NCBI GenBank assembly: GCA_032249395.1
Contig: JAVVFY010000001.1
Span: 825-64,824 of the forward strand
Reading direction: 5' to 3'
DNA: 64,000 nt
Source: Candidatus Aenigmatarchaeota archaeon
GTDB taxonomy: Archaea > Aenigmatarchaeota > Aenigmatarchaeia > CG10238-14 > SpSt-28
In this document: positions 6,044-57,431 of the stretch, in pieces
Layout: every line of letters starts with the position of its first letter
Numbering within the stretch: position 1 is the stretch's first letter
Position numbers and translations under genes: made by a program
The notes under the pieces: generated by a model
What the model was told of the DNA's origin: nothing
The model's database searches: none
What the model saw: only the letters and a program-made list of their open reading frames with translations

Positions 6044-6046
6044 ATT

Positions 6047-34379: not shown

Positions 34380-34461
34380 CCCCGGGCGGATTCGAACCGC
34401 CGTCTCAGGCTCCAGAGGCTTCCGCTAGATTCTGCGTCCTTGACCGCTAGACGACGGGGCT
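34377..34461 (-). tRNA. tRNA-Gln (anticodon CUG) with a 12-nt intron at non-canonical position 29/30; no encoded CCA
   Basis: Minus strand: AGCCCCG UC GUCU AGCGGUCAA GGAC G CAG[AAUCUAGCGGAA]GC CUCUGGA GCCUG AGAC GGCGG UUCGAAU CCGCC CGGGGCU A. It has a 7-bp acceptor stem with A1-U72 (an archaeal tRNA-Gln hallmark), a GUUCGAAUC T-loop, and after intron removal the stem CAGGC/GCCUG with U33 and G37. This is the only GC-rich stretch in its neighbourhood. Confidence 0.8.
34420..34431 (-). other. Putative tRNA intron (AAUCUAGCGGAA) between positions 29 and 30
   Basis: It must be removed to form the anticodon stem. A relaxed bulge-helix-bulge can be drawn with central helix (A)CGC/GCG(G), 3-nt bulges AG^A and AA^G, and outer helix AGG/CCU. 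Confidence 0.6.
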
Positions 34462-34514
34462 ATTGTGTTGTATTCCCAAAATTATTTTTATTTTTCATTT
34501 CAATAATTTTACTA

Positions 34515-36996: not shown

Positions 36997-37031
36997 AAAT
37001 TATTTATTTTTATTTTGTGATTAATATTAGT

Positions 37032-37862: not shown

Positions 37863-37883
37863 TTTGTTTACCATAATTTATGT

Positions 37884-38984: not shown

Positions 38985-39034
38985 AATAAAAACCCAAAAC
39001 CAGGGTATCCAAAAATTATTGGCGAGGGCTGATA

Positions 39035-39809
39035 ATGTTAATTATAGGGCTTGGATGGTCTCCAATAATTAACGATACAAGATTGTTAATCAGAACTATT
39101 AAAAGTTTTATCTCCGAGCCAAAAAGACCTAAGCAAAAGGGAAGGAAACCAAAAAAGCTTAAGGAATACTTAAGCTTGATAGTTGCTAAGGAAGCTAGGA
39201 AAGCGTTGCTTAGATATGCAGAATCTAGTTTATAGAATTAGTATGCAATGAAAGGGTTCCTAAATCAACGATAGCTTATTGGGAAAGCTCGGTTTGATTC
39301 TAGCTTAATAGAAAGAATTGTTATGGCTTTAGGAAGAAAGGTCAAGCAGTTGCTTGGATATATCTCTTCAATCCTAGATTCAACGAAGTTTACAAGCTGA
39401 AATAAAAGTTTGGTTGAATTTCATTTGCTAATTAGGAAAGCTGCAAATACAGTTTATCCAGTACCAATAGCTTTTGGCTCAAGCTTTCTAGCTCCATTAA
39501 GAGCTACCGCATGGTACGATAATAACATCATACTTAAGGCAATGGTCAAAGCAGGCTATTTACCTCTAGTAAAACCAAACAAAGTAAGAGGTAGAAAGAA
39601 CTTACATGAGAATTACTTACTTATTTTATAATGTTTTATAATGAATTTTTAGGCACGCTTCACCCAACCGAAAACTTTATAAAGCATAAATCTAAAATTA
39701 CATTATGAATGTAATTGAAAGATTGTTCCTAAGATTGGTGAAAAGCCTTGAAAATATTAGAAAGCCAATGCGTACATGGATCAGTCCTTCCGAGGAACCA
39801 AAGATGTAG
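39035..39809 (+). mobile_element. Degraded DDE transposase / IS remnant (IS4/IS5-like)
   Basis: Fragments lie in three frames separated by stops: ...KRPKQKGRKPKKLKEYLSLIVAKEA..., ERVPKSTIAYWE, ILDSTKFTS*, VEFHLLIRK...AWYDNNIILKAMVKAGYLPLVKPNKVRGRK and NVIERLFLRLVKSLENIRK. These are D, D and E-region-like motifs. I could not identify terminal inverted repeats. Confidence 0.5.
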
Positions 39810-39886
39810 TTTTTTATCTCTTTAATTTAAGAGAGACATTAAGTAAGTGATTAATTTAGTTATTTGTAAACGTGTAGATATAAGAT

Positions 39887-40813
39887 ATGAATAAGGTTTT
39901 CATTAGTGGTGTTGCAGGTTTTGTGGGGAGTCACTTAACCGAATCACTCTTAGACTATTTCGAAGTTATAGGAATAGATAATTTACTCAACGGAAAATTG
40001 ACTAATCTCAAAAACTTCATTCTTAAGAAAGAGTTCAACTTTCTGAGGAAAGATGTAAAATTTTTAAGAGACGAGAATTTACCTTCAAATATAAAAATTG
40101 TATACCATTTAGCAGTTAATCATAATTCTACATATACTTCTTATATAGATAACATTCAAACAACAAAGAAAATGTTAGAAATTGCAAGAAAAAAAGATGC
40201 AGAAAAATTTGTCTTTATGAGTAGTACCAAAGCAATGGGTCTAATAGCTTCTAAAAAACCTCTAGATGAATCAACTCCATGTAAACCATATGAGTGGTAC
40301 GGAAAAAGTAAACTTGAATGCGAAAGGCTTGTTAAAGATTTTTGTGAGACTTATGGAATAAAATATTATATATTTCGACCACCTAGAATTTTCGGTCCTA
40401 GAGATTGGCAAAAAACTTTTGCTGATTTTTCTACTTTAATTTTAAGGGCGAATATTCTTCCGCTCTCTCCAATTAAAATTAATCTTATTTATGTGAAGAA
40501 TTTAGTAGAGACTTTGTATCTAGTTTCAAAGAGGAATGCAAAATCAGGAGTTTATATTGTTTCTGATGGGGCTTATTCTATTTCTCAAATCTCACTTACA
40601 ATAGCAAAAATTCTTGGAAAGAGAAATGCACGAAAAATAAAAATACCTAGTTCGATTTTCACTATTTATTCTATATTTACAGGTTCTTTCACTCATGCAA
40701 GAAGAGGGATAGTGTATTCGTCAAAAAAATTCCGCAAAGAATTCAATTTTAAACCCCCATATACTTTTTATCGAGGAATGAAAGAAACATTAATTTATTT
40801 TGGTATAAAATAA
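39887..40813 (+). CDS. NAD-dependent sugar epimerase/dehydratase (extended SDR)
   Basis: FISGVAGFVGSHL (Rossmann fold), SSTKAMG and YGKSKLECE (YxxxK). Confidence 0.85.
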   Translation: MNKVFISGVAGFVGSHLTESLLDYFEVIGIDNLLNGKLTNLKNFILKKEFNFLRKDVKFLRDENLPSNIKIVYHLAVNHNSTYTSYIDNIQTTKKMLEIARKKDAEKFVFMSSTKAMGLIASKKPLDESTPCKPYEWYGKSKLECERLVKDFCETYGIKYYIFRPPRIFGPRDWQKTFADFSTLILRANILPLSPIKINLIYVKNLVETLYLVSKRNAKSGVYIVSDGAYSISQISLTIAKILGKRNARKIKIPSSIFTIYSIFTGSFTHARRGIVYSSKKFRKEFNFKPPYTFYRGMKETLIYFGIK

Positions 40814-40815
40814 AT

Positions 40816-41889
40816 ATGGAAAAAGTTATTTTTGATCTATTATCAACTTTCCAGTTTTTCAAATATCTGTTAGGTTATAACCTTTTTGTAAAGCTTGGAT
40901 GGCCTAAAATTTTGCCTTCTTTCTTAACATTCTCTGTTAACAATTACTGCAATCAACTTTGTAAAACTTGCAACATATGGAAGAATAATCCAATTGAAGA
41001 AAAGAAAAAAGAATTGAAATTAAACGAAATAGAAAGAATTTTTTCACAATTTCCTAAAATTTTCTGGCTTACTATTACTGGTGGAGAACCTTTTCTTCGT
41101 AGAGATTTAGTAGAAATAGTAAAAATAGCTTATGAAAAAAGCAAAGTTAATGTATTAACTATAACTACAAATGGTTCATTGCCAGATATAATAGAGAAAG
41201 ATGTAAAAGAAATTCTCATGAAGTGTAAAAATCTCACAATAATAGTCAATGTTTCAATTGATGGTGATAGAGAATTACACGACAAAATAAGAGGTATTAA
41301 AGGAAGTTTTGACAAAGCTGTTGAAACAATTGAAAAATTAAAGAAAATAAAAAGTCGAAGATTGATAGTAGGAATAAACAGTGTAATCTCAATTTTTAAT
41401 GTTGGTAAATTATACAATTTACTGAATGTTATTAGAAAACTTTCTCCAGATTCTTTTGCTTTTTGTGTAGCTCAAAACCGTGAAAAACTTTTCAATCTAG
41501 ATTTAAATATTTCCCCTTCTGTTAGCATAATAAGGAAAAACCTTTTATATTTAGTTAGATATTCCTTAGAAAAAAGAAAAGGCGTAATAGGCACGATAAA
41601 GAATTTTCTAAGATTAAGGTTTTACCGATATATTTTAAATCCAAGTTTAATGAATAATAAGCCAAATTTTGAAGGTATAGCAACGGTTTACCTTCTAAGC
41701 GACGGTAGATTAACTTTTAGCGAGATTTCTCTTCTTGAAGTAGGAAATTTAAGATACCATAAGTTTACTCTTCCAAAGCTGCTCTTTTCCAAAATAGCTA
41801 ATAAATACAGAAAATACGTAAATTCTGTTGAATATAAAAAGAGAATGATGGAAAATCCATTTATTGTCAATCAACTAATAAGTTTCTAG
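40816..41889 (+). CDS. Radical SAM protein
   Basis: NNYCNQLCKTCNIW (CxxxCxxC) and ITGGEPFLRRD. Confidence 0.75.
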   Translation: MEKVIFDLLSTFQFFKYLLGYNLFVKLGWPKILPSFLTFSVNNYCNQLCKTCNIWKNNPIEEKKKELKLNEIERIFSQFPKIFWLTITGGEPFLRRDLVEIVKIAYEKSKVNVLTITTNGSLPDIIEKDVKEILMKCKNLTIIVNVSIDGDRELHDKIRGIKGSFDKAVETIEKLKKIKSRRLIVGINSVISIFNVGKLYNLLNVIRKLSPDSFAFCVAQNREKLFNLDLNISPSVSIIRKNLLYLVRYSLEKRKGVIGTIKNFLRLRFYRYILNPSLMNNKPNFEGIATVYLLSDGRLTFSEISLLEVGNLRYHKFTLPKLLFSKIANKYRKYVNSVEYKKRMMENPFIVNQLISF

Positions 41890-41930
41890 AAAAAAGAAAA
41901 ATACTTAAATACCCAATTTAAACTATTTCT

Positions 41931-42629
41931 ATGAACAGACAATGGTTGTTCGTTAGCATTGGTTTATTTCTTCTAATAGTAGCTGTAGTAGCCTTCCTTT
42001 CAACTCGACAACCATCTTCTTTACAACCCTATTTTATCATTACATCACTATCTTCCAAGCCAACTTTGTTAGGTACTTACATAAAAAATCCTGATATAAT
42101 TCATAGTGCTGCAGGTTTTCTTTCGTTAAGCGAAGGAGTGTCGCCAAACGATCTTCTTCCCACATCGTCAGATTGGAAAGGGACGGCCTTTGTAGGCTAT
42201 AGTATTAGAGAATTGGGAGGAAGAAATGGCGTTGCTATTATCCATCCTGTGACTTCAACAATTGGTAGATATATAGAACAAGAGACCTACTTACCATCAG
42301 GAAAATATAAACTAGTTTTTGGAATAGCAAATGTAGCTGATATATTTCCTCCTGACGTTCTACAAGCAGGCATTGGTGGTTTTGTTGGTGATTGTGCAGA
42401 CGTTGGCATAAAAGTAATAGTGACAGACTTAGAAAAAGGAAAGGACTACATTATTTTTGACAAAGTTATTAGAAATGGAAGGTGGTACGATTATTCAGTT
42501 GATTTATCCTCCTACTTTTCGAATAAGAGAATTAAAGTAAGAGCAGAAAGCTACGCAGCAGATAAAGGATGCGGACTCTGGAACGGTGAGTGGGCAGCGG
42601 TTGATTATATAGACATTCAACCTTATTAG
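41931..42629 (+). CDS. Signal-anchored extracytoplasmic protein, unknown function
   Basis: N-terminal TM helix MNRQWLFVSIGLFLLIVAVVAFL. By eye it is richer in G, A, V and D and poorer in Lys than its neighbours. Confidence 0.5.
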   Translation: MNRQWLFVSIGLFLLIVAVVAFLSTRQPSSLQPYFIITSLSSKPTLLGTYIKNPDIIHSAAGFLSLSEGVSPNDLLPTSSDWKGTAFVGYSIRELGGRNGVAIIHPVTSTIGRYIEQETYLPSGKYKLVFGIANVADIFPPDVLQAGIGGFVGDCADVGIKVIVTDLEKGKDYIIFDKVIRNGRWYDYSVDLSSYFSNKRIKVRAESYAADKGCGLWNGEWAAVDYIDIQPY

Positions 42630-42745
42630 TCTTTCCCACTTTTCTCATATCTTTTGAATCCGTTTAACATAAGATAAGATGATAAAAAATTTACGGTAAG
42701 TTTTAAATAAAAATAGTTTTAAAAACGTTGTAGCGCATTTAGGAT

Positions 42746-43871
42746 ATGAAAAGAAAAGTAGTGATTTCAGGGTGGTACGGAATTCCAAATATGGGTGCTG
42801 AAGCAATTTTACAACAAACTATATTTTTTAAAAAACTACTTCCAGGAAATTACGGTATTCTCATGGGATCCCGAATACACTATGAGATTTCATCATGTCA
42901 AAAGTATTTCACACTTTTCTCCTATAGAAGTTATAAGAGAAATAAAAACTTCAGATACATTTGTTGTAGGAGGAGAATTAATTGATGATTCAGGCGGAGG
43001 ATTAACTTTTCGGTTGAGTAAACCGTTCATTTCAAAAATACTAGGTAAGAAAGTAATAATTTCTGCAGTTTCTGCTAAGCCTATAAAATTTGAGGTTAGA
43101 AAATTTTTGCTTCGGAAGATACTTAGTAAATTTGAATTAATAACACTTCGTGACAAATTTTCCTACTTATATTTTAAGAAGTTAGGATTAAAAAATATTC
43201 ACTTAGTTTCAGACCCAGCTGCTCTTATTAAATCAGCTCCAACTAGCGATATTGAAAGAATATTTAAAAAATATGAAATTAAGAAAAATAAGCGAATTAT
43301 TTCTGTTTGTTTGCACCCCCAATTTCAACAAAAAAGAGGATGGTCTGTTAGAAAAATTTATAATGAGGAGATATTACTAGAAGCTTTGCCAGAAGCTTTT
43401 GATAATTTAATTGATAAAGGTTTTCAATTGATTTTTATTCCTACACAAATTTCTCGTGTAGGAGATGATAGGATTCTAGCATATAAGATACGTAAAAAAA
43501 TGAAGTATAAAGATAGTTTTAAAATAATTGAAGAGTTGTATTCTCCTGAGGAGATTAAAGGAATAATAAAACAAAGCGAGTTGCTTTTAAGTATGAAGTT
43601 TCATCCATTAGTATTTGCTATTTCCGAAGGTATCCCAACAATAGCTATAACTTGCGAAAATCTATCCAGAGTTAAAAATTTTCATAAGGAGATGAACTTA
43701 GATCGATTTACACTTAATTTAGATGAGTTAACATCGAAAATGATAATAAAAAAAGTAGAAGATCTAGTTTTGTTTAAAAGCAAAATTAAAAGTATTATAC
43801 AACTAAATGCAGAAAAATTGAAAAAAAGAGCACAAAAGAATTTTAAGTTAATCGAGAAGTATATTGCTTGA
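42746..43871 (+). pseudogene. Polysaccharide pyruvyl transferase (CsaB-like), frameshifted near the 5' end
   Basis: The N-terminus MKRKVVISGWYGIPNMGAEAILQQTIFFKK is in one frame. The rest (...EITVFSWDPEYT...FVVGGELIDDSGG...KFHPLVFAISEGIPTIAI) is in another. The switch falls at the T6A6 run near 42832-42845. Confidence 0.7.
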
Positions 43872-44118
43872 TACTAGAACTTTCTATCCCAATCTATAAA
43901 ACTATTTTTAGCTTTTGTCAAAGTAAAGAAGTTTTTCCTAATATCCACAGGATTCTTTATGATTATAATTTATATCAACAATCATGCTTAAAAACTAATG
44001 TATCTAGTGAAAAAGGTAGAGTTTAAGTCGATAAAATTATTAAATAATGCCAGAATTTCTATTTAACCCAAAAAGTATTTTCTTAGAGGCACTACCGTAA
44101 CTATGAAAATTATAGACA

Positions 44119-45381
44119 TCAAACCTTGCTAGTTTTTTCTACTAAAATACACTTTCCTGTTTTTTCGTTTTTCATTACATCCTTCGAAAAAACAACATTT
44201 ATTTCTTTGAAGTATCTTTTAAGCGGTTTAATATCAGGATAGCCAGATTCTTTCCAAGGGACAACTACTAACCTTGCTTTTAATTGATTATCAAAAAATA
44301 ATTGGCATTTCCAAAAATCTTTGCAAATATTAACTAACAACTCCATAAGCTTTTTTTGAGTAACTTTTTTGCTAATAGAGTGTTGTTTTCTTCCTTCTAT
44401 GCTTTTTATTCTTATTGGATAGGCAATTTCACATTTGCCATTACTTTTAATTGCATAATCTTCTTGTCTATATCTTACAAGAGGCATTGCTTTATTCAAC
44501 AGAGAAGTTATAACAACCTCGCCAGTCTCATTTTCCTTAACTTCATTTCCATTCTCATCTAAAATCTCAACAATCAAAGCATCTTCAGGTACATGATAGC
44601 CTAATTTATACTTACACTCGAATGCTATTCTATTAAACTCATTAGATCCGTATTCATCATGAACTGGAGCATCAAATGCTTCTTCTATTGTTTTCCTCAT
44701 AGTTTCTGTCAAGATTTCAGCATGAGTAATTATTATCTTAGGCTTAAAATTTAATCTGATGTTATTATGTAGAATATACTTTGCAATGAAAAAAAGTTGA
44801 GAGGGATAATAATATATATATTCAGGCTTTATTTTCTGCATAAATTCTAGTTGCTTTAATTCATTCCAATGGATTGGAACAAAAATTTTCTTAAAATATC
44901 CAAAAATTTTAGAATACCATTTATTTTCTCTCATTGACCACCAATAGTAGAGAAGAGGCTTAAAAGGATTATATCCTGCATATACAAGAGCATTTGCATA
45001 TACCGCATCGAGATAGGTTTTTGTTGGAATATCAAAATAAACTCTTAAAGGTTTTCCCGTGCTTCCAGAGGTTTGTCTAAAAAATAAAAACTGGAAGTTT
45101 AGTTGGTCAACAAACCCTTTGTACTCTCGTGAAATAAAAGAATGATAATTTTTCTTAATGGTTTTTTTATCAATTATTGGTAATTTTTTTAAATCCTCTT
45201 CGTCTTTAATATTGCTTGGAGATAAGTTTAGTTTTTTCCAAAGTTTTCGATAGAAGGGAACATTTTCATAAGCATATTTTACTATTTCTTTTAATCTTTC
45301 TTTTTTTAAATCCTTTACTTTTTTTTCATCAATTTTTTTTAGAGAAATATACCAATATAATTTGTAAAAATTCTCAAGCAT
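44119..45381 (-). CDS. Adenylate-forming enzyme, phenylacetate-CoA ligase / CapK / F390-synthetase family
   Basis: FRQTSGSTGKPLRVYF (AMP-binding P-loop), YGSNEF, and the general CapK-like length and layout. Confidence 0.75.
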   Translation of the reverse strand: MLENFYKLYWYISLKKIDEKKVKDLKKERLKEIVKYAYENVPFYRKLWKKLNLSPSNIKDEEDLKKLPIIDKKTIKKNYHSFISREYKGFVDQLNFQFLFFRQTSGSTGKPLRVYFDIPTKTYLDAVYANALVYAGYNPFKPLLYYWWSMRENKWYSKIFGYFKKIFVPIHWNELKQLEFMQKIKPEYIYYYPSQLFFIAKYILHNNIRLNFKPKIIITHAEILTETMRKTIEEAFDAPVHDEYGSNEFNRIAFECKYKLGYHVPEDALIVEILDENGNEVKENETGEVVITSLLNKAMPLVRYRQEDYAIKSNGKCEIAYPIRIKSIEGRKQHSISKKVTQKKLMELLVNICKDFWKCQLFFDNQLKARLVVVPWKESGYPDIKPLKRYFKEINVVFSKDVMKNEKTGKCILVEKTSKV

Positions 45382-45460: not shown

Positions 45461-48400
45461 ATGGGATTTTTGAAAGTCGAGGAGTTGAAAATTTTCCTCA
45501 CTTTTTTTATTCTCTACTCTTTATTTATACATTGGGTAGGATGGAATGAAGATACTCGACTTTTAACAGCAATTTCTATAATAGAAAAAAATACTTTTGA
45601 TATAAACACTTATGCAAATTTCACAGGCGATAGAATATTAGTTAATGGAAAGTATTACTCTGATAAGGCTCCAGGAATTTCTCTCTTTTTATCATCGATT
45701 TATTTCATTTTTAAAACTTATTTTGGAGAGCAGTTTGGCACGAACAAATATGTTTTAGTTCCACAACCACAATTCAATACAACAGTTTACTTTATATATG
45801 ACAACATAGAAAAGAGCGTTTTAATGACAATGATTTTTGGTGTAATTCTCCTTTCCTCTCTAGTTGGAGCACTTTCTGTAGTTTTATTTAGAAGGATTCT
45901 TCTTTTATACTTTAGTAAAAAAACATCTTTATTACTTTCCATTGTTTTTGAATTATCCTTAGTTTTTCCCTATTCAACAGTTTTGATGGGAGCCTCATTT
46001 TCTCTTTTCTTACTTCTTTTGTCATTTTATATTCTTCAAAAAGATTATAAACAAAAGTATGTTATAGGGGGAATTTTACTTGGCTTATCATTTCTTATTG
46101 ATTATACTTCAATACTGGTTGCAGTTCCTTTGATTTTCTTCATTTGGAATAAGACATCGATAATCGAAAGAATAAAGTTTTTTCTATCCTTCGCATTAGG
46201 AGTATTGTCACTTTTTATTTATTCTTTCTCTATTTTCAATAACCCCATTGGTTTTTTCATTTATTATAATTTTATAGATCCAAGTATATATCCCTGTACA
46301 TACGGTAAAAAATACTTTGAATTTTGTCCAGAACCTCTTCTCTTATCACTTAAATCTCTTCCTGATATTAGTGTAGAATGGATTCTCAAAATATTACACT
46401 TGCTTATATTTCCGTATCGTGGAATTATTTTTTATAACCCATTTTTAATATTTTTCATTGTAAGCTTGTTTTTTGTCTTTAAAAGAAATAAGCAAATTTT
46501 TTATCTTTCTTTCTTTACATTTCTTTTATCCGTGCTTTCTATTTCTTTACATGGATACTGGTTTGGTGGTTCAAGTTTCGGTCCAAGGTATTTAGTAAAT
46601 TCTTTACCTCTAATGGTTATTCCTATTGGTTATCTTTTGGAAGATGAGAAATTTAAAAGAAGCAAGATTTTAATAGGTCTCTTTTCTTTGTCTATTCTAA
46701 TTTCAACTTTTCATACGTTTCTTTCAACAGCTGCTAATTGGGAGGGAGTGATAGTTGTTTTTACAAAAACCAGCGCATATTTATATGCCGACTGGTATGA
46801 AAAGTCATTTTTTGCTAAAAAATTCAGAGAACTGAATCCTCTTTACCAACATTATTTGCCAGCTTTTCTAGATAATGGTCCAAGAAGCAGAATTCTAGAG
46901 TTTTTGTTGGCCGGAGAAATACCAGATATAAGAGATTTTAAAGTAATGCCAAAGAAAGAAATAAAATTATTTACTCTAGAAAATTTTGGAATTTTGACTC
47001 TTCGCATTCCATTTGTTGTTATACCAATTTTACTTTCAATACTTCTTTTAATCTGGCACAAAGAGCTTTCTAGTTTTAAAGTTCTAAATTTAAGATTGGA
47101 CATTTTATTGCTATTAATAATAATTATTATTTCTCTTTCCAGGATTGAATTTAAATACTTAGCTTTTGGTAAAGGATGGTTGCCTCAAGGCACAAATGAA
47201 ACTGCTATATGGAGTAGCAAAAACGGAGAAATATACATTTTCTCCCCAATTGAGAGAGACGTGATAATAAATATTTCGGTTGTTAATTACAGGGGCAAAA
47301 CTTTAGAATTGTATATGAATGAAAATATTATAGGTAGTTATGTATCTCCAGAGAATATTGTTGAAACAGTTAAGTTTAAAAAAGGCGAAAATAAGCTGTT
47401 GCTTCTCTCAAAAGAAGATTGTGAGATTCCTCTCTATGTTGAAAATCAATTGATATGTTCTAATTTATTAGAATGTATGAAGTTGAATACAACACCCTTT
47501 AATCTTAGTTTTGATGCAAGATGCTTGAGCTTTGGAGTAAAAAACATTTCAGTTATTCCTTTAGAAACTCTTTTAACTGGAGACATAAAAGTTGTATACG
47601 GTAGCGGTTTTTATACTCCAGAAAAATATGGAAGATGGATGAGCAATAATTCGGTATTGTACATTTATTTTCCTCAAACAAGAATAGCATTTCTAAACAT
47701 TTCATTCGATGGATATCAAAATGTTAATGTTTCTGCCTTTTTAAACAATAAATTTATTGGACGATTTTATGCTCAAACATTCTTTGAAAAAGTTGTTTTG
47801 AAAAAAGGAATAAACGAGCTAAAATTTATTTCCGATTCATGCGTAGTTCCTGCATATATCTCAAATGGCTCGAATGATTATAGATGTTTAACTAAAGTTC
47901 TAAGAAACATTACAATTGTTTACGAGAATGATTTGAAACCAGGAATTTATTTTGGAAGCAATTGGTACGATGATTATTGGATGTCCATGAATGCAAGCTT
48001 TTACATATATTCTGATAAATATGAAAATGTATTTTTGAATGTTTCTCTATCTACATATAAAAACATAACATTTGTTCTTTTACTTAATAAAAAGAGAATA
48101 GGAGAATTTCAAGGGTATAGAGTTTTCGAGCCGATAGAACTTAATAAGGGATTAAATAGACTAACAATCATTTCAAATGACTGCTACATTCCAGCCTTTG
48201 AAGAAAAAAATTCAAGTGATTTAAGATGTCTAAGTTTGGCAGTAAAAAACATAAGTCTGATTGATATGGCTAAACTTAGAAAACCAGGAGTTTATTTTGG
48301 AAGCGGTTGGTATGATGAAGAAAAATACGGTGGAAGATGGGCATCTAAAAAATCGACACTTTACATCTATTCTGATGAAGAAAAAACCGTTTTCTTTAGT

Positions 48401-49714
48401 GCCTCAATTCCTTATTATAGGGCTGAAGATATTAAGCTTATTCTAAACAATCAATCACTAGGAGACTTTAAAGTTCAGTCGCTTTTTGTTCCTTTAACTT
48501 TAAAGAAAGGATTGAACAAGTTGGAATTATATTCTGATAAATGCGAAATTCCGGCTCATCTAGAAAATAACTCTAAAGACTTTAGGTGTTTAAGTTTTTT
48601 CGTAAGAAATATTAGTTTGATTGATTTAGATGAGTTGAAAGAAATAGTACATTTTGGTAGCGGATGGTACGAAAAAGAAGAAATCGGAAGATGGATGTCT
48701 TCTTCTTCAATGATTTATTTAATAAAGCAGATGGACTACACTAAACTTTCTTTAGAGCTTGAAAGTTTTAGACAACCAAGAAAACTCCATATTGAAGTTG
48801 ATGGAAAATCTTACGTTTTCAATATTCCAGCTGAAAAATCGCAAAAAATTTCTTTAATTTTGTCGCCATCAAACATAACAAAAATTAAGCTAGAAACTTA
48901 TCCAGCATGTGAGGTGCCTAGCAAAAACGATAATAGATGTTTAAGCCTATTTCTAAGAAACCTTAGTCTAGAGAATTTGAAAAATATAGAATATTTCAAT
49001 TTCTTTGACGAAGAAAAATATAACGAAATCAAATTTAGATGGTTTTCCACGAATTCAAAAGTCTATGTTTTGAGCAACGAAACTAATCTATTTCTAATTA
49101 AGTTTAATGTCTGGACACTACCAGCTCAAAAAAGAATTTTGAAAATCTATGTTAATGGGATGAAGATAAACGAATACAATGTTAACGAGACAATAGCATC
49201 AATTCATTTGCCAGTAGTTTTAAGAAAAGGTGTAAACGAAATTATTTTCCTTGTAGATGCATGTGGATATGTTGCTAAAGATATACGTTGCTTAGGAGCG
49301 GCTATTTCTGAAATTCAAAAAGAAGAAATTGATATAAAAAATATAGAAAAAATCGCTAAAGGATTTTATGGTCTAGAAAGTGCTTATGGTAGCTACTTTA
49401 GATGGATGAGCAACGAAGGAGAAATTCGTCTATTCTCTCCTCAAAATTCAAGTGTGAAGTTATACGTAAAAGTCGGCTGGACATACTTTTCTGATAGGAA
49501 TTTGAATATAACATTAGATGATAAATTGATTTTTTCCGAAAAGATTGCTAAAAGTGGAATGGAATTTCCAATAATATTGGATTTAGTAGAAGGGTGGAAT
49601 AAGATAAAGTTTACTTCAAGTTGTGATCTTCCAGCAAGTTTAGAATTTAGTGAGGATAAAAGATGTCTGAGTTTAGCTTTTACGAGTTTAAGCTTTTTAC
49701 CTTCTAGCTCTTAA
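45461..49714 (+). CDS. Giant membrane protein: N-terminal GT-C-type polytopic glycosyltransferase domain plus seven C-terminal RCLS repeat domains
   Basis: 1417 aa. Residues ~1-560 contain more than 12 TM helices, with WNEDTRLL after TM1 and YYSDKAPG. Residues 569-1417 contain seven ~115-aa repeats. Confidence 0.8.
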   Translation: MGFLKVEELKIFLTFFILYSLFIHWVGWNEDTRLLTAISIIEKNTFDINTYANFTGDRILVNGKYYSDKAPGISLFLSSIYFIFKTYFGEQFGTNKYVLVPQPQFNTTVYFIYDNIEKSVLMTMIFGVILLSSLVGALSVVLFRRILLLYFSKKTSLLLSIVFELSLVFPYSTVLMGASFSLFLLLLSFYILQKDYKQKYVIGGILLGLSFLIDYTSILVAVPLIFFIWNKTSIIERIKFFLSFALGVLSLFIYSFSIFNNPIGFFIYYNFIDPSIYPCTYGKKYFEFCPEPLLLSLKSLPDISVEWILKILHLLIFPYRGIIFYNPFLIFFIVSLFFVFKRNKQIFYLSFFTFLLSVLSISLHGYWFGGSSFGPRYLVNSLPLMVIPIGYLLEDEKFKRSKILIGLFSLSILISTFHTFLSTAANWEGVIVVFTKTSAYLYADWYEKSFFAKKFRELNPLYQHYLPAFLDNGPRSRILEFLLAGEIPDIRDFKVMPKKEIKLFTLENFGILTLRIPFVVIPILLSILLLIWHKELSSFKVLNLRLDILLLLIIIIISLSRIEFKYLAFGKGWLPQGTNETAIWSSKNGEIYIFSPIERDVIINISVVNYRGKTLELYMNENIIGSYVSPENIVETVKFKKGENKLLLLSKEDCEIPLYVENQLICSNLLECMKLNTTPFNLSFDARCLSFGVKNISVIPLETLLTGDIKVVYGSGFYTPEKYGRWMSNNSVLYIYFPQTRIAFLNISFDGYQNVNVSAFLNNKFIGRFYAQTFFEKVVLKKGINELKFISDSCVVPAYISNGSNDYRCLTKVLRNITIVYENDLKPGIYFGSNWYDDYWMSMNASFYIYSDKYENVFLNVSLSTYKNITFVLLLNKKRIGEFQGYRVFEPIELNKGLNRLTIISNDCYIPAFEEKNSSDLRCLSLAVKNISLIDMAKLRKPGVYFGSGWYDEEKYGGRWASKKSTLYIYSDEEKTVFFSASIPYYRAEDIKLILNNQSLGDFKVQSLFVPLTLKKGLNKLELYSDKCEIPAHLENNSKDFRCLSFFVRNISLIDLDELKEIVHFGSGWYEKEEIGRWMSSSSMIYLIKQMDYTKLSLELESFRQPRKLHIEVDGKSYVFNIPAEKSQKISLILSPSNITKIKLETYPACEVPSKNDNRCLSLFLRNLSLENLKNIEYFNFFDEEKYNEIKFRWFSTNSKVYVLSNETNLFLIKFNVWTLPAQKRILKIYVNGMKINEYNVNETIASIHLPVVLRKGVNEIIFLVDACGYVAKDIRCLGAAISEIQKEEIDIKNIEKIAKGFYGLESAYGSYFRWMSNEGEIRLFSPQNSSVKLYVKVGWTYFSDRNLNITLDDKLIFSEKIAKSGMEFPIILDLVEGWNKIKFTSSCDLPASLEFSEDKRCLSLAFTSLSFLPSSS
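47165..49711 (+). repeat. Seven tandem protein-level repeats (~114-144 aa each) of an unrecognised domain
   Basis: Repeat starts are at 47165, 47597, 47951, 48296, 48653, 48995 and 49361. Consensus: [FY]GSG[WF]Y..E....RWMS....LYIY...(~25 aa)...LN...IG.F.....F..L.L.KG.N.L...S..C.IPA.....S.D.RCLS..V.NISLI. The copies are diverged at DNA level. Confidence 0.8.
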
Positions 49715-49973: not shown

Positions 49974-51974
49974 ATGAATAGAAGAGACTTATTTAAGTTT
50001 TTATTTGGAGTGGGTTTGGGTGTTGCGGCAGCAGAAACTTATGAAAGACTTTATAATATTCCAGCGTTAGAGAGAGCATTTAGAAAGGAAATTGAATATT
50101 GGTGGAGTCAATATTTGGATGCAAAAAGAAAAACAGAAGAATTATCAAGCAAATTGAAAACAAAAGAAGAAGAAATAGATACTCTTCAAAAAGATGTAAG
50201 TTATTGGAAGAGCCAATACTATGTAGTGCAGGATGAAGTTAATAAATTAAATACGAAAGTGGATGAATTGTCAAGCAAATTGAAAGAGTCCAATGAAAAG
50301 ATTGATAGCCTAGAGAAAGAATTAGACAATTGGAAAAGTAAATATGAAAGTACAAAAGAAGAGGCTGATGGGCTAAAATCAATTATTGGAAGCATGGATG
50401 AATTGGAAAGAGAGTCAGTTGATGCAATTTCCTATTATAGAGAAAAAATGAATGAAGCAATATATAATTTGAGAAGAACGATTGAGAAATACAGAGCAAT
50501 ACTTGGCGATGATAGAGTTGCCTTCGAATCTTCTACAGTGAAAATATTAGAAGATTTGAAATTAACTCAGGAAAAATTGCAAAAAGTTTTGCCTTATTTT
50601 CCATTGATATTAAACTTCGCTTGGAAGCCAACAAAGGTAATTAACGATAAAATATACGATATAAACGTTAGCTTTGAGGTTATTTCTCCTTTGAATAGTT
50701 TGAGAGAAGTTGAGGTTATGCTTATTCCTGAAGAATACAGATATTTTATAACTACGTATGGAATGAGAGAAGAAGATTATGATAAAGTTTTTCCAAAGGA
50801 GGAAGTAAGAAGTATTAAAATTAAACCAAGAAATCTTGAAAGAGAAATGTTTAGCGTTGATTTTGAAGATTTGAAAGGGGGAAGAGAGTACATCATTAAA
50901 GCAAGAGTTGAGGATGTTGCTGGGAATAAAAAAATGGTAGAAGTGAAAACACCTTATATAAGACAGTTTGAAAACATTGCTAAGACAGATGACATTTTGG
51001 TAATAGTTCCTTACTATCTTTGGTATAGACCTGATCTTAGTAACTGGAAAGATGGGCATAAATATACATCACTACTTGGTGAATACCGTTCAGACGACTC
51101 AATAGTACATTCTAAACATATAGATTGGGCAACTGGTTATGGAATAGACGTATTTATTGTTTCATGGGATGGTTATAATTCTAACAAAGACATTCAGTAT
51201 TTTAATAATAATCTAAAGCTACTTTTTAGAAATGAGTTATCAAAAGATATTAAAATAGCAATATTATATGAAGGTTTGAAATTTAAAACAACAGGAAATC
51301 CACAAAAGCCTTGGGAAAGAGACATTTCTGATCCTCATAATTTAGAGATATTACTATCGGATTTCAAATACTTAGCAGATAATTATTTCAATGACGAAAA
51401 TTATTTTAGAATAGAGGGAAAGCCTGTTGTATATGTTTATGGTTCTGCTACATATATAAATACAAAAGATGCTCTTGAAAAACTACAAGAAATCATGAGA
51501 GAAAAAATTGGAAAGAAGGTTTTTTTAATTTCCGATCATGTTACTCCTCATTTTTTTCCCGGGCAGAAACCTGAATGGGAAAGAGAAGCTAGATCATTTG
51601 AAGGTACTACTTCTTGGCTAGGTGGATATTCTCCTTCAGGTGAATATCTAGGTGGCAGTTATGAGGTACAGATAGATAAAATGTATTCGGAATGGTTTAA
51701 ATGGACTTTAGAAAATAAAAAGCTACATGTGCCATCAACAACGCCTGAATTTGATAATCGATATGTTAAATGGGGTAATCCTACCTCCATACCTTTAGAG
51801 AGGTCTCCTGAGAACTTCAGGAAAAGATTAGAAATTATTTTGAAATATACTAATTACCCTAGAGTAATATCTCTAGGTACGTGGAATGATTTTTTTGAAA
51901 GTACAACATTAGAGCCAACTAGGGAATACGAATTCACGTATCTTAAAATAATTAGGGAGATAATAGGTTTATGA
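49974..51974 (+). CDS. Tat-signal protein with a coiled-coil stalk and a GH99-like glycoside hydrolase domain
   Basis: MNRRDLFKFLFGVGLGVAAA is a twin-arginine motif. The coiled coil has duplicated ELSSKLK..E.ID.L.K....WKS.Y units. The C-terminus has PYYLWYRPD...LLGEYRSDDSIVHSKHIDWATGYGIDVFIVSWDG...GKPVVYVYGS...ISLGTWNDFFESTTLEP, collinear with the endo-alpha-mannosidase (GH99) motifs FYYxWYG / LGxYSSxD...SWY / SFNEWHEGTQIE. Confidence 0.6.
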   Translation: MNRRDLFKFLFGVGLGVAAAETYERLYNIPALERAFRKEIEYWWSQYLDAKRKTEELSSKLKTKEEEIDTLQKDVSYWKSQYYVVQDEVNKLNTKVDELSSKLKESNEKIDSLEKELDNWKSKYESTKEEADGLKSIIGSMDELERESVDAISYYREKMNEAIYNLRRTIEKYRAILGDDRVAFESSTVKILEDLKLTQEKLQKVLPYFPLILNFAWKPTKVINDKIYDINVSFEVISPLNSLREVEVMLIPEEYRYFITTYGMREEDYDKVFPKEEVRSIKIKPRNLEREMFSVDFEDLKGGREYIIKARVEDVAGNKKMVEVKTPYIRQFENIAKTDDILVIVPYYLWYRPDLSNWKDGHKYTSLLGEYRSDDSIVHSKHIDWATGYGIDVFIVSWDGYNSNKDIQYFNNNLKLLFRNELSKDIKIAILYEGLKFKTTGNPQKPWERDISDPHNLEILLSDFKYLADNYFNDENYFRIEGKPVVYVYGSATYINTKDALEKLQEIMREKIGKKVFLISDHVTPHFFPGQKPEWEREARSFEGTTSWLGGYSPSGEYLGGSYEVQIDKMYSEWFKWTLENKKLHVPSTTPEFDNRYVKWGNPTSIPLERSPENFRKRLEIILKYTNYPRVISLGTWNDFFESTTLEPTREYEFTYLKIIREIIGL

Positions 51975-53617
51975 ATCTTCATGGCAACATAAATATATTT
52001 ATTAATGAGAAAATGATTTACTGCATATTAGCTTTTTCTCTTATTATTAGAATTCTAAAATTAGAAGAAATACCCCCAGGATTTTATGTTGATGAGGTTG
52101 TTTTCGGTTATGATGCTTATTCATTAATTACAACAGGAAGAGATAGTGATGGAAACTTACTTCCTATCTATTTCAGGCATTTAGGAACTTACGTAGACCC
52201 TATTTATGTTTATTCTATAATTCCATTAATACTTCTGTTTGGAAATACTATTTTTTCAGTAAGATTTACTTCTGTTCTTTATGGTGTTATGTCAATTTTT
52301 ACTACCTATCTTTTTGTCAAAGAGGCTTTCAACAAAAAATTAGCTCTATTAACTTCACTCTTTCTTGCTTTATCACCTTGGCATTTTTTCTTTAGTAGGG
52401 TTGGTTTCCAATGTATTTCTTTTACATTTTATTTTACCTTGAGTTTATACTTTTTGCTGAAAAGTTTACAAAATAAGCCGCGATTCCTTTATCTAGGTTT
52501 TATTATTCTTGGGATTTCCATTTACACTTATTTCGTTTCTAGGCTTTTTATTCCCTTATTTATATTAGGATTTATCTTTATCTATAGAAAAAAACTGTTA
52601 TACTTAGATGAGTTTCGCAAATATTTAATTTGGTCATTTTTTATTTTTTTCATCATAATAACACCATTTATATATAACTTAGTCTTTAATTACGAGATAA
52701 TAATGAGTAGGTTTAATCATGTATCTATATTCAGAAACGGATACGAAAGTATGAGAATTGAATTTAATCTTCCAGAAAATTTTTCCAGATATCTTTTGGT
52801 ATCATTATCTTTTGTCGAAAATTATATTTCTCATATTTCCCCAACATTCCTCTTTTTCGAAGGAGACCCCAACCCAAGACATTCTTTGAGAGAATTTGGT
52901 CAACTTTATTTGTTTCAATCTTTACCGATTCTTTTTGGTATTTTCGTTTGTATAAAAGAAAGAAGAGAAATACATAAGCTTCTAATATTTTGGCTTGCCA
53001 TTTATAGCATTCCCGCATCTTTAACATATGAAGGAATACCTCATGCAGTTAGAACTATAACGGCACTACCTTTATTTGAAATTTTTACTAGTATTGGTCT
53101 GAGCTACATGTTTACTGCTATTAATAAGGACAAAAGTTTTGCTTTGCTTCTTTTGATAAATTCTATTTTATTATCATATAATGTTATAAAATTCTTTAAT
53201 CATTATTTTAGTATTTATTCAGTCTATGCATATCCCTATTGGAATACTAAGTTTAATGAGGTTGTAATATTTTTAGAAAATGTTAAAAATAGTTACAGAA
53301 ACGTTTTTGTTGAAGAGACATGTTTAAGTTATCCTCAATATTATATAGCTTACTTTTTGAGGATTCATCCGATCGAATTTCAATTTAATAAAAAAGTAGA
53401 GGAGGTGACACGGATCGACAATTATGTTATCGTAAAAAAGATACCGGAAAGTTTTTGTGAACAATCACCCGATTCCATCTACGTAACATGTGCTAATTTT
53501 GTTTATTCCTCTAGTATGTTTGGTAAGGCACTTAAAATATTTTTAAATCCTGACGAATCAATAGGTTTTATAATTTTTGATTGCAAATCTTTGGTTGTAT
53601 CATCCTCTCTCGCTTAG
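51971..53617 (+). CDS. Polytopic membrane glycosyltransferase, GT-C (PMT_2/ArnT-like)
   Basis: IPPGFYVDEVVFGYDAYSL after TM1 (acidic loop motif), then about 12 TM helices and a C-terminal soluble domain. The start overlaps the upstream stop (ATGA). Confidence 0.65.
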   Translation: MNLHGNINIFINEKMIYCILAFSLIIRILKLEEIPPGFYVDEVVFGYDAYSLITTGRDSDGNLLPIYFRHLGTYVDPIYVYSIIPLILLFGNTIFSVRFTSVLYGVMSIFTTYLFVKEAFNKKLALLTSLFLALSPWHFFFSRVGFQCISFTFYFTLSLYFLLKSLQNKPRFLYLGFIILGISIYTYFVSRLFIPLFILGFIFIYRKKLLYLDEFRKYLIWSFFIFFIIITPFIYNLVFNYEIIMSRFNHVSIFRNGYESMRIEFNLPENFSRYLLVSLSFVENYISHISPTFLFFEGDPNPRHSLREFGQLYLFQSLPILFGIFVCIKERREIHKLLIFWLAIYSIPASLTYEGIPHAVRTITALPLFEIFTSIGLSYMFTAINKDKSFALLLLINSILLSYNVIKFFNHYFSIYSVYAYPYWNTKFNEVVIFLENVKNSYRNVFVEETCLSYPQYYIAYFLRIHPIEFQFNKKVEEVTRIDNYVIVKKIPESFCEQSPDSIYVTCANFVYSSSMFGKALKIFLNPDESIGFIIFDCKSLVVSSSLA

Positions 53618-53618
53618 T

Positions 53619-55430
53619 TCAAATTCTAAGTTTTATAATAATGTAGTAATTATCTTCCCATATAACTTCTTTTATTTCTGGAGGAATAATTTTTATAATT
53701 TCTTCAAAAGTGGTTGCGAATGCTTCACCTCTCAAGAATTTATAATGGATTATATATCTCGTGTTCTGTTCTTTTAAAAATTTTAATAATCCTTCTACAT
53801 CCTTATTACGAATGAACTCTTTTAGCATAACTAGGGAATAAATACTTTCTGTATCTCTCCGTGAAATATAACCGTCTAATATCTTTTTTTCATGTATGGT
53901 TTGTAAATACATAGAAAACGAGTTTGCCCATTCTGGAGGGATATTTAGAATCGTGATATTCTCTTTATCACTTTTAATAGTGTAAATCACAGATGGAGGT
54001 GGTAAATCAAAGGTAATAAAGAAAAAATTCTGAGGAAAAGTTTCTACATAAGAAGCAACCATAAGTAAAGGAATAAACAAAGTAAACTTTCTATCTTTTT
54101 TTATTAGTTTGTTTAAAAGAATCATGAAAATAATTATTAAGCTTAATAACACAACAATAGAAAATCTCGTTGAAACACGGATATAAGGAAATATTTTATG
54201 ATACATTTTAAATACTAAATTTTCTCTGTTTAATATCTCCGGTCCAGATGAAAGTACGAAAAAAATAATTGATACTAGAAAAAATAAAAATAATAATTCT
54301 TTCTCTCTTTTACTTAAGTAAACTCTTTTGAACATTAACAAACTAGTAACTATCAAAAGCGGAAATGTTAATGACCAAGGTAAGGATATAATGCTATCTG
54401 CATAAGAGAATAAATTTCCAGGTTTTAAATGATATGATGGATTCAGATTTATATAGTAGTTATACTTACCAAATAAGGAAAAAGGAGAAAAAGAAAGATA
54501 ATTAATAAGAGATGATAGATGTAAAACATCTTTTAGTTCAATGATACAACTTTCACATCTTTTATTACTAAACTCGAACATTATAAAGATGAGTTTAGAT
54601 AAAGATATTAAAAAAAATATGAGTGTTGCCAATATAACCATGAAGCTTACTATATCATGTTTTTTAATTACAAAAAATAGCATGAAAATAAAAGTTATGA
54701 TTAGGGTGAAAGAAAAGTAATACAAATCAGTAAAAAATACTAAAACGTAAAAGATAAAAAGAGAAAACATAAGATAAAATAATTTTAAGATTTTTTCTTT
54801 TCTTTCTAATAGTTTCAATAGTAAGAAAATGAGGATAGGAAATACAAAAATGGCTGTGAGATTTAGCTGACCTATAATCTTGGCGTACATATAATTAGAA
54901 AAACCGAAATAAATGCCTCCAAGAAATGATAGTAATAAATTTTTAGTTATATACTTAACTAGGAAAAAAACTGAATAAGAAGCAACTATAACTGAAGCTA
55001 AAATAAGAATATTATAAATCAAAATTAAATTACTAGTAAAGTTTTGAAGTAAAAATGCTATTAATGAATAAGTAAGTGTTAATGTGTGCGCGTATAAGTA
55101 TGTTCCCTTGGGGTAAAATAAATAGTCTGTATAAAAAACATCTCTTCCTTCTAAAATAGCTTTCTTTATCCACCAGAAATTCCATAAAAATTGATAACCG
55201 TCTCCCCCATCTCCAATTAAAACTCTATCAATCCCAAGTATAAATAACTTGTGAAAAGCAAGAATTGTTAGCAAAGTATAAAGTTCTAGAACTATTATAT
55301 GTTCTAGAACAGAATCTACATTAATCTTTATATGAATTCTTTTCTTTAAGAAGTGAAATATATAAGAAAATTTAGAAGGCAAAACATAAATCATTTTTTT
55401 AACATTATTCTCATTATTTTCCTTTTCCAT
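53619..55430 (-). CDS. Polytopic membrane protein, possible GT-C-like transferase
   Basis: 603 aa with more than 12 TM helices. The first loop has LIGDGGDGYQFLWNFWW...YTDYLFYPKG, and there is a C-terminal soluble domain. Confidence 0.5.
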   Translation of the reverse strand: MEKENNENNVKKMIYVLPSKFSYIFHFLKKRIHIKINVDSVLEHIIVLELYTLLTILAFHKLFILGIDRVLIGDGGDGYQFLWNFWWIKKAILEGRDVFYTDYLFYPKGTYLYAHTLTLTYSLIAFLLQNFTSNLILIYNILILASVIVASYSVFFLVKYITKNLLLSFLGGIYFGFSNYMYAKIIGQLNLTAIFVFPILIFLLLKLLERKEKILKLFYLMFSLFIFYVLVFFTDLYYFSFTLIITFIFMLFFVIKKHDIVSFMVILATLIFFLISLSKLIFIMFEFSNKRCESCIIELKDVLHLSSLINYLSFSPFSLFGKYNYYINLNPSYHLKPGNLFSYADSIISLPWSLTFPLLIVTSLLMFKRVYLSKREKELLFLFFLVSIIFFVLSSGPEILNRENLVFKMYHKIFPYIRVSTRFSIVVLLSLIIIFMILLNKLIKKDRKFTLFIPLLMVASYVETFPQNFFFITFDLPPPSVIYTIKSDKENITILNIPPEWANSFSMYLQTIHEKKILDGYISRRDTESIYSLVMLKEFIRNKDVEGLLKFLKEQNTRYIIHYKFLRGEAFATTFEEIIKIIPPEIKEVIWEDNYYIIIKLRI

Positions 55431-55688
55431 ATTTTAATAATAAGTCCGGAAATTTTAATCTATCTTAACGTTATTGTATTTTATTATTTTTACTTTTTCA
55501 CATAGACACAATATTCAACTTTCTTTCTTATATGCAAATTGAAAGACAGGATAGGGAAAAAAACAAGCTTTAACTTTTGTAGTAAAGTTGAAATAGTCGA
55601 TTTATCTACTTATTCGCCATTATCTAGTTGACTGCTCAAATTTTAACCTTTAAGAAAAGCTTTTAAACATAAGGAAAAAAATTACATA

Positions 55689-56426
55689 ATGAATAGGAAT
55701 AAGTTACTTATAATCGCCTTTTTGCTATTCTTTGTAATTATTGGTATTGTATTTTTCCTTACAGAAACTTCTAAAATAAAAACAGTACATCCTAACCTAA
55801 TAGCTTGGTATAAATTTGATGAAGGGAAAGGCACTAAAGTAAGGGACTACTCTGGATATAGAAATGATGGAGCTATTTATGGAGGTGCTTCTTGGGTTAA
55901 AGATACACCATTTGGTACCGGATACGCTTTGTATTTTAATGGAATAGATGCTATGGTACAAATTCCTGATAACCCTATACTTAATAATTTAGAAGAGATA
56001 ACCGTTACTGTATGGATTAAAGCTGAAGATTTGCAATATGGCGCTTCCATTGTTGATAAAGGTTGGTATAACCCTAGAATATGGTATGATTCTCCTTTCA
56101 ACAGATTTATGTTCCAATTGAGAGATATTCAAGAAGAGAGAGGTTTTGGTTGGTCTGACGACTCTTTTTCTAAATGCTATAAAAAATGGTGTTTCTTGGC
56201 TGCCACTTACTCTTCTAGTGAAAACAAAGTTAGACTATACATAAATGGAGAGTTGGATAAAGAGTTTGAATGGAATGGTAAACCATTAGTTTCAAGAGCT
56301 GGAGAGTCTTTAAAAATAGGTTTTCAGGATAAATACTTCAAAGGAATTATTAGTGATTTAAGGATATACAATAAGGCTTTGAGCAACCAAGAGATACTAA
56401 ATGTCATGAGAGGTCAAATAATTTAA
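55689..56426 (+). CDS. Signal-anchored LamG (concanavalin-A-like lectin/glucanase) domain protein
   Basis: LIAWYKFDEGKGTKVRDYSGYRNDGAIYGGASWV...ALYFNGIDAMVQIPD...ITVTVWIKA...RLYINGEL...FKGIISDLRIYNKALSNQEI. Confidence 0.75.
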   Translation: MNRNKLLIIAFLLFFVIIGIVFFLTETSKIKTVHPNLIAWYKFDEGKGTKVRDYSGYRNDGAIYGGASWVKDTPFGTGYALYFNGIDAMVQIPDNPILNNLEEITVTVWIKAEDLQYGASIVDKGWYNPRIWYDSPFNRFMFQLRDIQEERGFGWSDDSFSKCYKKWCFLAATYSSSENKVRLYINGELDKEFEWNGKPLVSRAGESLKIGFQDKYFKGIISDLRIYNKALSNQEILNVMRGQII

Positions 56427-56493
56427 AAGTAATTAATTTTAGTTTTTCGAGTTTCAGTAAAATAATTTAAAGAGTTAATATAAAAACATTTTA

Positions 56494-57396: not shown

Positions 57397-57431
57397 TTAA
57401 TTTTTAATTGTTCCATCTTAAATGTATTTAA

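Follow-up and report, generated by a model that had tools for sequence, protein, structure and literature searches.

Seven tandem jelly-roll modules resembling carbohydrate-binding modules on a predicted GT-C glycosyltransferase of an Aenigmatarchaeota archaeon

Why should a membrane-embedded archaeal glycosyltransferase end in seven copies of one small domain? This question is raised by a gene at 45461..49714 (+ strand) in a 64,000-nucleotide stretch of the genome of a Candidatus Aenigmatarchaeota archaeon (assembly GCA_032249395.1, contig JAVVFY010000001.1, positions 825 to 64,824 of the forward strand; hereafter, the window). A preliminary description, made from the letters of the window, had read its product as a GT-C transferase fused to seven tandem repeats that it could assign to no named family. 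In the list of open reading frames (ORFs), the gene is complete and encodes 1417 amino acids (aa), and the identical gene call is found both on a 48-kb JGI metagenome contig (Ga0326762_1000084) and in an independent Logan assembly (SRR10916988). Here, modelling places the repeats as a divergent sequence family inside the galactose-binding-like jelly-roll fold typified by carbohydrate-binding module (CBM) families 6 and 35. We further propose, with about as much doubt as belief, that the array binds a polymeric glycan acceptor on the cell's own surface, on an outside-facing transferase of the ArnT/AglS type that would depend on lipid-phosphate sugars.

The segment to which the repeats were originally assigned (47165-49711) corresponds to aa 569-1417 of the protein. 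Motif mapping and alignment resolve seven tandem units of ~115 aa, all on the + strand: repeat 1 (aa 566-706; 47156..47578), repeat 2 (aa 710-827; 47588..47941), which served for modelling, repeat 3 (aa 828-941; 47942..48283), repeat 4 (aa 943-1061; 48287..48643), repeat 5 (aa 1062-1178; 48644..48994), repeat 6 (aa 1179-1294; 48995..49342), and the C-terminal repeat 7 (aa 1295-1417; 49343..49711). Pairwise identity between the copies is 29-48%, with repeats 5-7 the most diverged. Against a family profile that contains the window's own units, the seven score 85-110 bits apiece (E 1e-26 to 1e-34). All seven repeats share, without exception, the Trp of the RW motif, the Ser that follows, the first Cys, and D-x-R-C-L. 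The motifs originally listed (RW, a central LN, KG.N.L, C.[IV]P, and D.RCLS) are present as described, except that repeat 6 lacks the IP after its first Cys and reads RCLG instead of RCLS. The "nine repeats" also mentioned at that stage are probably these seven plus two in a 300-aa protein encoded four genes downstream (56494..57396, + strand), in which a local hmmsearch finds two domains with an E value of 6e-65. The linkers between modules are short, and in an AlphaFold2 (AF2) model of aa 1-707, repeat 1 directly follows the last membrane helix. Repeat 1 also carries a 19-aa insertion between its conserved Cys residues (aa 656-674, 47426-47482; ENQLICSNLLECMKLNTTPFNLS), which is modelled as two short helices and contributes an extra Cys pair (C666 and C672); a distant homologue has an insertion that resembles it (NQIKCTTMLECFDMKLSPYNMS).

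The first 565 residues (45461..47155, + strand) were examined with Pfam, NCBIfam, an AF2 model, and Foldseek. Sequence models recognize this part faintly: the Pfam PMT_2 match at aa 123-253 scores 25.9 bits, just below the gathering cut-off of 26.1, and the NCBIfam LA_3751/2 model (a putative glycosyltransferase subfamily) matches with an E value of 7.8e-12, but at 44.7 bits against a cut-off of 200. Orthologues sharing 54-81% identity carry a precomputed PF13231 (PMT_2) match and the JGI name "ArnT-like", and the names ArnT-family or GT39 are given to more distant relatives in metagenome-assembled genomes (MAGs) of Nanohaloarchaeota. The AF2 model of aa 1-707, built on a 55-sequence alignment, has 13 transmembrane helices with a predicted local distance difference test score (pLDDT) of 90.8 and a predicted template modelling score of 0.92. 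Its best matches in the PDB are all GT-C proteins (ALG12, EmbA/EmbB, AftB, AglB, and ALG9). These matches are weak (E 1.8e-4 to 2e-3, template modelling score 0.35-0.49), indicating that no close relative has been solved. In the first outside loop (aa 22-117), D57 is invariant in the 55 homologues, and Y66, K69, and P71 of a YSDKAPG motif are at least 90% conserved. Thus, the model assigns aa 1-565 a GT-C fold, that is, a multi-helix membrane domain similar to solved GT-C enzymes, and the identification of the N-terminal half as a GT-C transferase is supported by the modelled fold and the invariant loop Asp, with which the two sub-threshold family matches agree. The membrane-domain model has a single part of low confidence (aa 276-300, 46286-46360; pLDDT below 50 at aa 281-300), which lies within a long outside loop; the only two Cys residues of the GT-C domain, C279 and C289, are found in this loop.

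On which side of the membrane the array lies was judged by helix counting and the positive-inside rule rather than with a dedicated predictor. With 13 helices and the N-terminus inside, the first loop, including D57, and the C-terminal tail would both be outside. All six inside loops have three to four Lys or Arg residues in their surrounding segments, and the three short outside loops have none. The standalone two-repeat paralogue at 56494..57396 has a Lys/Arg-rich N-terminal signal anchor. These three observations agree with the extracytoplasmic location originally suggested, and the array is therefore predicted to lie outside the cell; a cytoplasmic array was rejected on the odd helix count and the positive-inside pattern.

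What, then, is the module? Repeat 2, modelled with AF2 on an alignment of 79 units, gives an all-beta jelly roll with a pLDDT of 96.3, in keeping with the beta-sandwich that had been anticipated. The top Foldseek match in the PDB is the CBM35 structure 2w3j (E 7.2e-4, probability 1.0, query-normalized template modelling score 0.58, 13% identity). Further matches are CBM35, CBM6, and related jelly rolls, the top ones all with probability 1.0, and many CBM35 and CBM6 structures appear in the top 50; an E value of 1e-3 or lower is reached by only two matches. A separate sequence-profile search of the PDB also ranks 2w3j first (E 0.09, below significance), with 4qb1 at E 0.13 and the CBM35 of Xyn30D, GH2/GH35 jelly rolls, and BcsB among the other sub-threshold matches. 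The module shares with CBM35 and CBM6 (2w3j, 2w47, and 4qb1) the beta-jelly-roll, a length of ~115-140 aa, and the strand motifs vNG ... L..G.N.i.l; the motifs GWY..E..RWM and C..P..D.RCLS and the Cys pair are the archaeal module's own and not features of CBM35/6. BcsB carbohydrate-binding domains and GH2/GH35 jelly rolls match weakly, below threshold, over the same vNG ... G.N core, and they differ in architecture and context.

At the sequence level, no Pfam or NCBIfam model reached its threshold on the repeats, whether the query was the whole protein, the seven repeats, 79 diverse units, or nine Cys-less units. The only hints, all weak and sub-threshold, are to BetaGal_ABD2, SAC9_GBDL, CE2_N, BcsB, DUF7024, and DUF7532. 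PDB searches with a single sequence and with profiles A1, A2, and A4 gave no significant match to the repeat. The Pfam CBM models matched none of the 79 units, and a CAZy-style sequence criterion does not place the module in CBM35 or CBM6. DUF7024 was considered as a relative and set aside, having matched only two of the 79 units (best E 0.0048); DUF7532 was set aside as well, having matched one Cys-less homologue (E 3e-5, 24.5 bits against a cut-off of 27). Neither match was reproduced on isolated units. In the literature on DUF7024 and on GT-C, CBM, or DPANN surface glycosyltransferases, no description of the module was found. The fold is thus known, and the sequence family is unannotated in the libraries queried. 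The original statement that the module belongs to no named family stands for Pfam, NCBIfam, and PDB sequences, but the fold is not new, CBM35 and CBM6 being closest to it; likewise, the kind of match that was expected to end the module's novelty exists for the fold and not for the sequence. Taken together, the modelled structure and the profile searches describe a divergent sequence family that would sit inside the galactose-binding-like, CBM6/35-type jelly-roll fold.

The two Cys residues reported for each repeat are present in all seven copies, and the wider family treats them as a unit. Among 383 units, 363 contain both, 14 contain neither, and only six contain one, a pattern expected of a disulfide; in the Cys-less units, D.R.LGV stands in place of D.RCLS. 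The repeat 2 model puts the first Cys after the penultimate long strand and the second immediately before the last one, such that a bond would close a loop of ~15 residues. Each module is thus probably clamped by one disulfide, from C..P to RCLS.

A second recurrent feature is the N-glycosylation sequon. The repeat region contains 24 N-x-S/T sites, compared with 8.3 +/- 2.6 in composition-matched shuffles, a roughly 3-fold excess that none of 2000 shuffles reached; the 565-aa membrane domain has three such sites, and units across the family average 2.8. As originally noted, a sequon lies four residues past RCLS in five of the seven repeats, namely repeats 1-5 (N695, N816, N930, N1050, and N1167), and it is absent from repeats 6 and 7. 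It had been said to look obligatory, a description that the family does not support: the boundary sequon occurs in about 29% of 369 units and is one of three hot spots, at profile column 22 just after RWM (32%), column 109, the boundary site itself (28.5%), and column 38 (22%). The boundary Asn and the Ser/Thr two residues on are nevertheless coupled with an odds ratio of 10, which falls to 6.6-7 after thinning to units less than 40% or less than 35% identical. This coupling argues for selection of the sequon as such, with relatedness among the units as a caveat. In the repeat 2 model, the boundary sequon, N-[ILFV]-[ST], falls midway along the last strand, which would turn its Asn and Ser/Thr outward. 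These data argue that the boundary site, where present, would be a recurrent and real glycosylation site. The organism can N-glycosylate the sequon-rich repeats, since the window encodes an AglB/STT3 oligosaccharyltransferase that would use the sequons (780..2867, + strand; Pfam STT3, E 4e-27), and the repeat domain is very probably N-glycosylated.

How common is this architecture? A word-indexed protein search with the seven-repeat profile returned only eight short fragments of close orthologues, and with the 79-unit profile nothing, so that an exhaustive search was needed to see the family. With the seven-repeat profile, this search of 1.84 billion representatives of clusters at 50% identity gave 1028 proteins at E <= 1e-3, of which 376 reach E <= 1e-10 and 89 reach E <= 1e-30. 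Retrieval of 1028 other protein clusters indicates that the repeats are neither chance nor low complexity; together with the motif mapping, the alignment, and the profile scores, it bears out the seven tandem copies after the GT-C domain. The best 150 matches are mostly 800-1200 aa long, with the first repeat starting near aa 550. Across 156 sequences drawn from these 150, the eight word-index fragments, and the window protein, two repeats are the most frequent count (83 sequences), followed by three (33), four (19), five (10), and one (5), with six (1), seven (2), eight (2), and ten (1) being rare; seven copies are thus at the high end of a range of 1-10. The N-terminal domains of ~550 aa are homologous family-wide, with 22-81% identity to the window protein, indicating that GT-C plus repeats is an inherited architecture and not a one-off fusion. 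The consensus of 383 units reads GWY..E....RWM ... LNg ... L..G.N.l.f.S.GC.vP.....D.RCLS. Hence, the fusion of such an array to a transferase is not the unusual arrangement it first seemed: it is common in metagenomes, and AftD and Emb also carry CBMs.

The family is known so far almost exclusively from metagenomes, and most of its members are singletons there. Those with a named source all belong to DPANN archaea: one Aenigmatarchaeota MAG has a locus with genes for a GT-C with one repeat and for a protein with four, and the others are a hypothetical protein of Aenigmatarchaeota and two proteins of Nanohaloarchaeota. A contig search with a motif-focused alignment led to one Aenigmatarchaeota MAG, which shows how poorly the taxonomic range of the family is sampled. 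In a locus of the Aenigmatarchaeota MAG JAGVVZ010000006 (locus positions 4278-6065), a 596-aa protein has no more of the GT-C domain than its first transmembrane helix and the opening part of the outside loop (…DDKYYPAQPIGYS), to which four repeats are directly attached; it appears to be what remains of a truncated GT-C whose array was kept, and homologues P0094 and P0089 have the same layout.

Comparison among orthologues adds a further dimension. The window repeats are 75-92% identical to the repeats at the same positions in seven-repeat orthologues. In the five-repeat orthologue P0159, repeats 1, 4, 5, 6, and 7 are matched at 76-86% identity and repeats 2-3 are lacking; P0010 and P0162 show the same order of best matches, with several repeats just 44-54% identical, and four-repeat orthologues retain only repeats 1, 5, 6, and 7. 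Each module is thus under constraint of its own, yet in mid-array whole modules are cleanly gained or lost. The position-specific identity argues that each module would have a constrained role of its own rather than serve as an interchangeable spacer.

The gene lies in glycan-biosynthetic surroundings. Upstream, at 36163..45381, Pfam recognizes a GT2, a methyltransferase, an ATP-grasp protein, an NAD-epimerase, a radical SAM protein, a polysaccharide pyruvyl transferase, and an AMP-binding enzyme. The downstream glycan genes (49974..60214, Pfam) begin with a WbsX/GH71/GH99-like protein directly beside the array gene (49974-51974, + strand). This 666-aa protein has a Tat-like or anchor N-terminus (MNRRDLFKFLFGVGLGVAAA), a coiled coil of ~150 aa, and a WbsX/GH71/GH99-like domain, an odd mix for a glycan-processing enzyme. 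Next comes a second, unrelated PMT_2 GT-C (51971-53617, Pfam), which was rejected as a repeat-less paralogue because its sequence is not significantly similar to aa 1-565. A LamG lectin-like protein (55689-56426, Pfam), the two-repeat protein, and a GT1/GT4 (59069-60214, Pfam) follow. The two-repeat protein has one hydrophobic anchor, and its architecture recurs in other metagenome clusters. Similar settings are seen elsewhere: one 723-kb contig has at least two GT-C-plus-repeat paralogues and a third PMT_2 gene, all of them beside GT2, epimerase, DegT, and radical SAM genes. On another contig (ENA ERZ25039515 contig_20101; locus positions 4028-12596), a Cys-less family member with five repeats and the motif D.R.LGV (P0130) directly follows genes for a DegT protein, a 124-aa EamA protein, a hexapeptide acetyltransferase, and a GT2. 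This locus has an Arn-like three-component layout, and it suggests that the module family reaches beyond the Cys-stapled form.

Two known systems offer precedents for such an enzyme. The GT-C enzyme AftD has three CBMs; their binding of complex arabinans has been demonstrated, and they were proposed to hold a long acceptor (10.1101/2019.12.22.885152). In archaea, AglS moves the sugar of dolichol-phosphate (Dol-P)-mannose onto a protein-bound glycan outside the cell (PMC3871713). The window protein resembles AftD and EmbA/B/C in being a multi-helix GT-C that would use a lipid-phosphate sugar and in carrying extracytoplasmic beta-sandwich modules of the CBM type, thought in those enzymes to hold the polymeric acceptor; EmbA/B are among the top structural matches of aa 1-707. 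It differs from them in having no detectable sequence homology and a template modelling score of only ~0.3, and in the layout of its modules. AftD and Emb have two or three different, tightly packed domains, followed in AftD by further transmembrane helices, whereas the archaeal protein has a single module type in 1-10 copies across its family, strictly C-terminal, with a conserved Cys pair and many sequons. A likeness to the ArnT/AglS three-component system (a GT2 lipid-phosphate-sugar synthase, a flippase, and a GT-C) is found in the PMT_2/ArnT-like signatures of the N-terminal domain, the PMT_2 match of the window protein being just short of the Pfam threshold, and in the relative whose cluster runs DegT-EamA-acetyltransferase-GT2-GT-C. 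To our knowledge, neither ArnT nor AglS has a tandem module array. A GT-C with extracytoplasmic modules of the carbohydrate-binding type, as in AftD and Emb, is therefore already known, as is the CBM6/35-like fold. The novelty lies elsewhere: the module forms a distinct, unannotated sequence family in which the two Cys residues are coupled and sequons recur; 1-10 copies of it, and of no other module type, are strung together strictly at the C-terminus, with insertion or deletion of whole modules; and it is abundant in archaea of the DPANN type, where anchored proteins made of repeats alone occur as well.

In the mechanism that we propose, an extracytoplasmic transferase of the ArnT/PMT/AglS type would work at the outer face of the archaeal membrane with a lipid-phosphate sugar, and its C-terminal tail would be a beads-on-a-string array of seven small CBM35/CBM6-like jelly rolls. 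The array would grip a polymeric acceptor of the cell's own surface, either a polysaccharide or the glycans on surface glycoproteins, hold it near the active site, and keep the enzyme engaged, as proposed for the CBMs of AftD and Emb. The catalytic activity, the identities of donor and acceptor, and the binding of carbohydrate are what we infer from the combination of GT-C identity, an outside array, a binding-module fold, a glycan-cluster context, the AftD/AglS precedent, and position-specific conservation; for these reasons, acceptor binding is put forward as the working answer.

Several points weigh against it. The likeness to CBMs exists at the level of fold only, the top matches having template modelling scores of 0.5-0.59, 8-16% identity, and Foldseek E values of ~1e-3, beside the profile E of 0.09. 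The vNG and G.N motifs are common to the jelly rolls of GH2/beta-galactosidases and are probably structural, and many jelly-roll domains do not bind sugar. No Dol-P-sugar flippase was recognized in the window and no GT2 stands directly beside the array gene; a check of the gaps of the glycan cluster for a small flippase or an adjacent lipid-phosphate-sugar synthase recognized none. Finally, the clean loss of modules 2-4 in close relatives means that several modules are dispensable, which would fit a spacer too.

The spacer is the rival that survives best. It would make the array a structural stalk or ruler, that is, a rigid, disulfide-clamped, heavily N-glycosylated rod with no specific sugar binding, whose task would be to raise a partner protein, or part of the enzyme itself, through the S-layer or envelope or to set a distance. 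The range of 1-10 repeats across the family speaks for such a rod, as do the short linkers, the 24 sequons where 8.3 +/- 2.6 are expected, and the clean loss of whole modules between orthologues whose remaining modules are 54-86% identical. We consider it fairly unlikely all the same: a C-terminal stalk would not move the catalytic site, which in a GT-C is at the surface of the membrane, position-specific identity of 75-92% and a family-wide W/Y/E/R/D motif set are not expected of a pure spacer, and the fold matches are dominated by carbohydrate-binding modules. A bolder picture would join several of these elements in a length-variable, self-glycosylated surface organelle of DPANN cells, acting as a ruler or processivity track that determines how long a surface glycan is or how it is patterned, or as a lectin arm that grips glycans of the host cell, with module gain and loss tuning reach or specificity and with the modules forming a new, DPANN-specific CBM family; this we regard as unlikely.

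Less probable still, and in our view quite doubtful, is that the array is mainly a host-adhesion device of an episymbiotic cell, binding glycans of the host surface, with the GT-C as an anchor or a modifier of that surface. Every named family member is from a DPANN lineage (Aenigmatarchaeota or Nanohaloarchaeota), membrane-anchored repeat-only proteins exist, and seven modules, if extended, could span several tens of nanometres, judging from typical CBM dimensions. The window itself has DPANN-like traits: an ORF joining the small- and large-subunit primase domains, AglB, an intein-bearing CDC48, and a GC content of ~30%. Against adhesion stand the full-length GT-C with its invariant catalytic-loop Asp, which is therefore no mere anchor, the position of the genes within the cell's own glycan-biosynthesis clusters, and the lack of evident host-interaction genes nearby. 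To the last rival, in which the repeats are cytoplasmic or an artefact of composition or assembly, we give practically no credence: the AT-rich genome (~30% GC) does inflate Asn, Ile, and Lys and hence chance motifs, but the gene is present in independent assemblies, has 1028 homologous clusters and a modelled fold at pLDDT 96, and carries a sequon excess reached by 0 of 2000 shuffles, and the odd helix count and positive-inside pattern place the tail outside.

Other features of the window deserve mention. The primase ORF noted above (6047-7504, - strand) encodes 485 aa with both the small- and the large-subunit Pfam domains of DNA primase, a fused PriS-PriL; such a fused primase is a trait reported for archaea of the DPANN/Nanoarchaeota type. 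Within a 1250-aa CDC48/AAA ATPase (23818-27570, - strand) lies an intein (Intein_splicing, aa 308-779) that includes a LAGLIDADG homing-endonuclease domain. A 469-aa protein (31503-32912, + strand) joins a thymidylate-synthase domain to a C-terminal pterin-binding DUF4346 domain. The only tRNA in the 64 kb (34376-34462, - strand; Rfam, 44 bits) is 87 nt long, receives no assignment from ARAGORN, which reports a four-base anticodon "agcg", and overlaps the TTG start listed for the ORF at 34440-35222; it may be atypical or harbour an intron.

Surface glycans play a central part in the episymbiotic life of DPANN archaea and have hardly been studied. Despite their tiny genomes, these organisms maintain up to several genes of 1-2 thousand codons per genome with the GT-C-plus-repeat architecture, at least two of them on the single 723-kb contig. 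The hidden Markov model, the domain boundaries, and the candidate binding modules described here provide a handle for annotating DPANN genomes and for studying glycosylation of the archaeal envelope. If the modules bind sugars, they would constitute a new CBM family; if they do not, the protein would be a new case of a glycosylated stalk on a GT-C enzyme.

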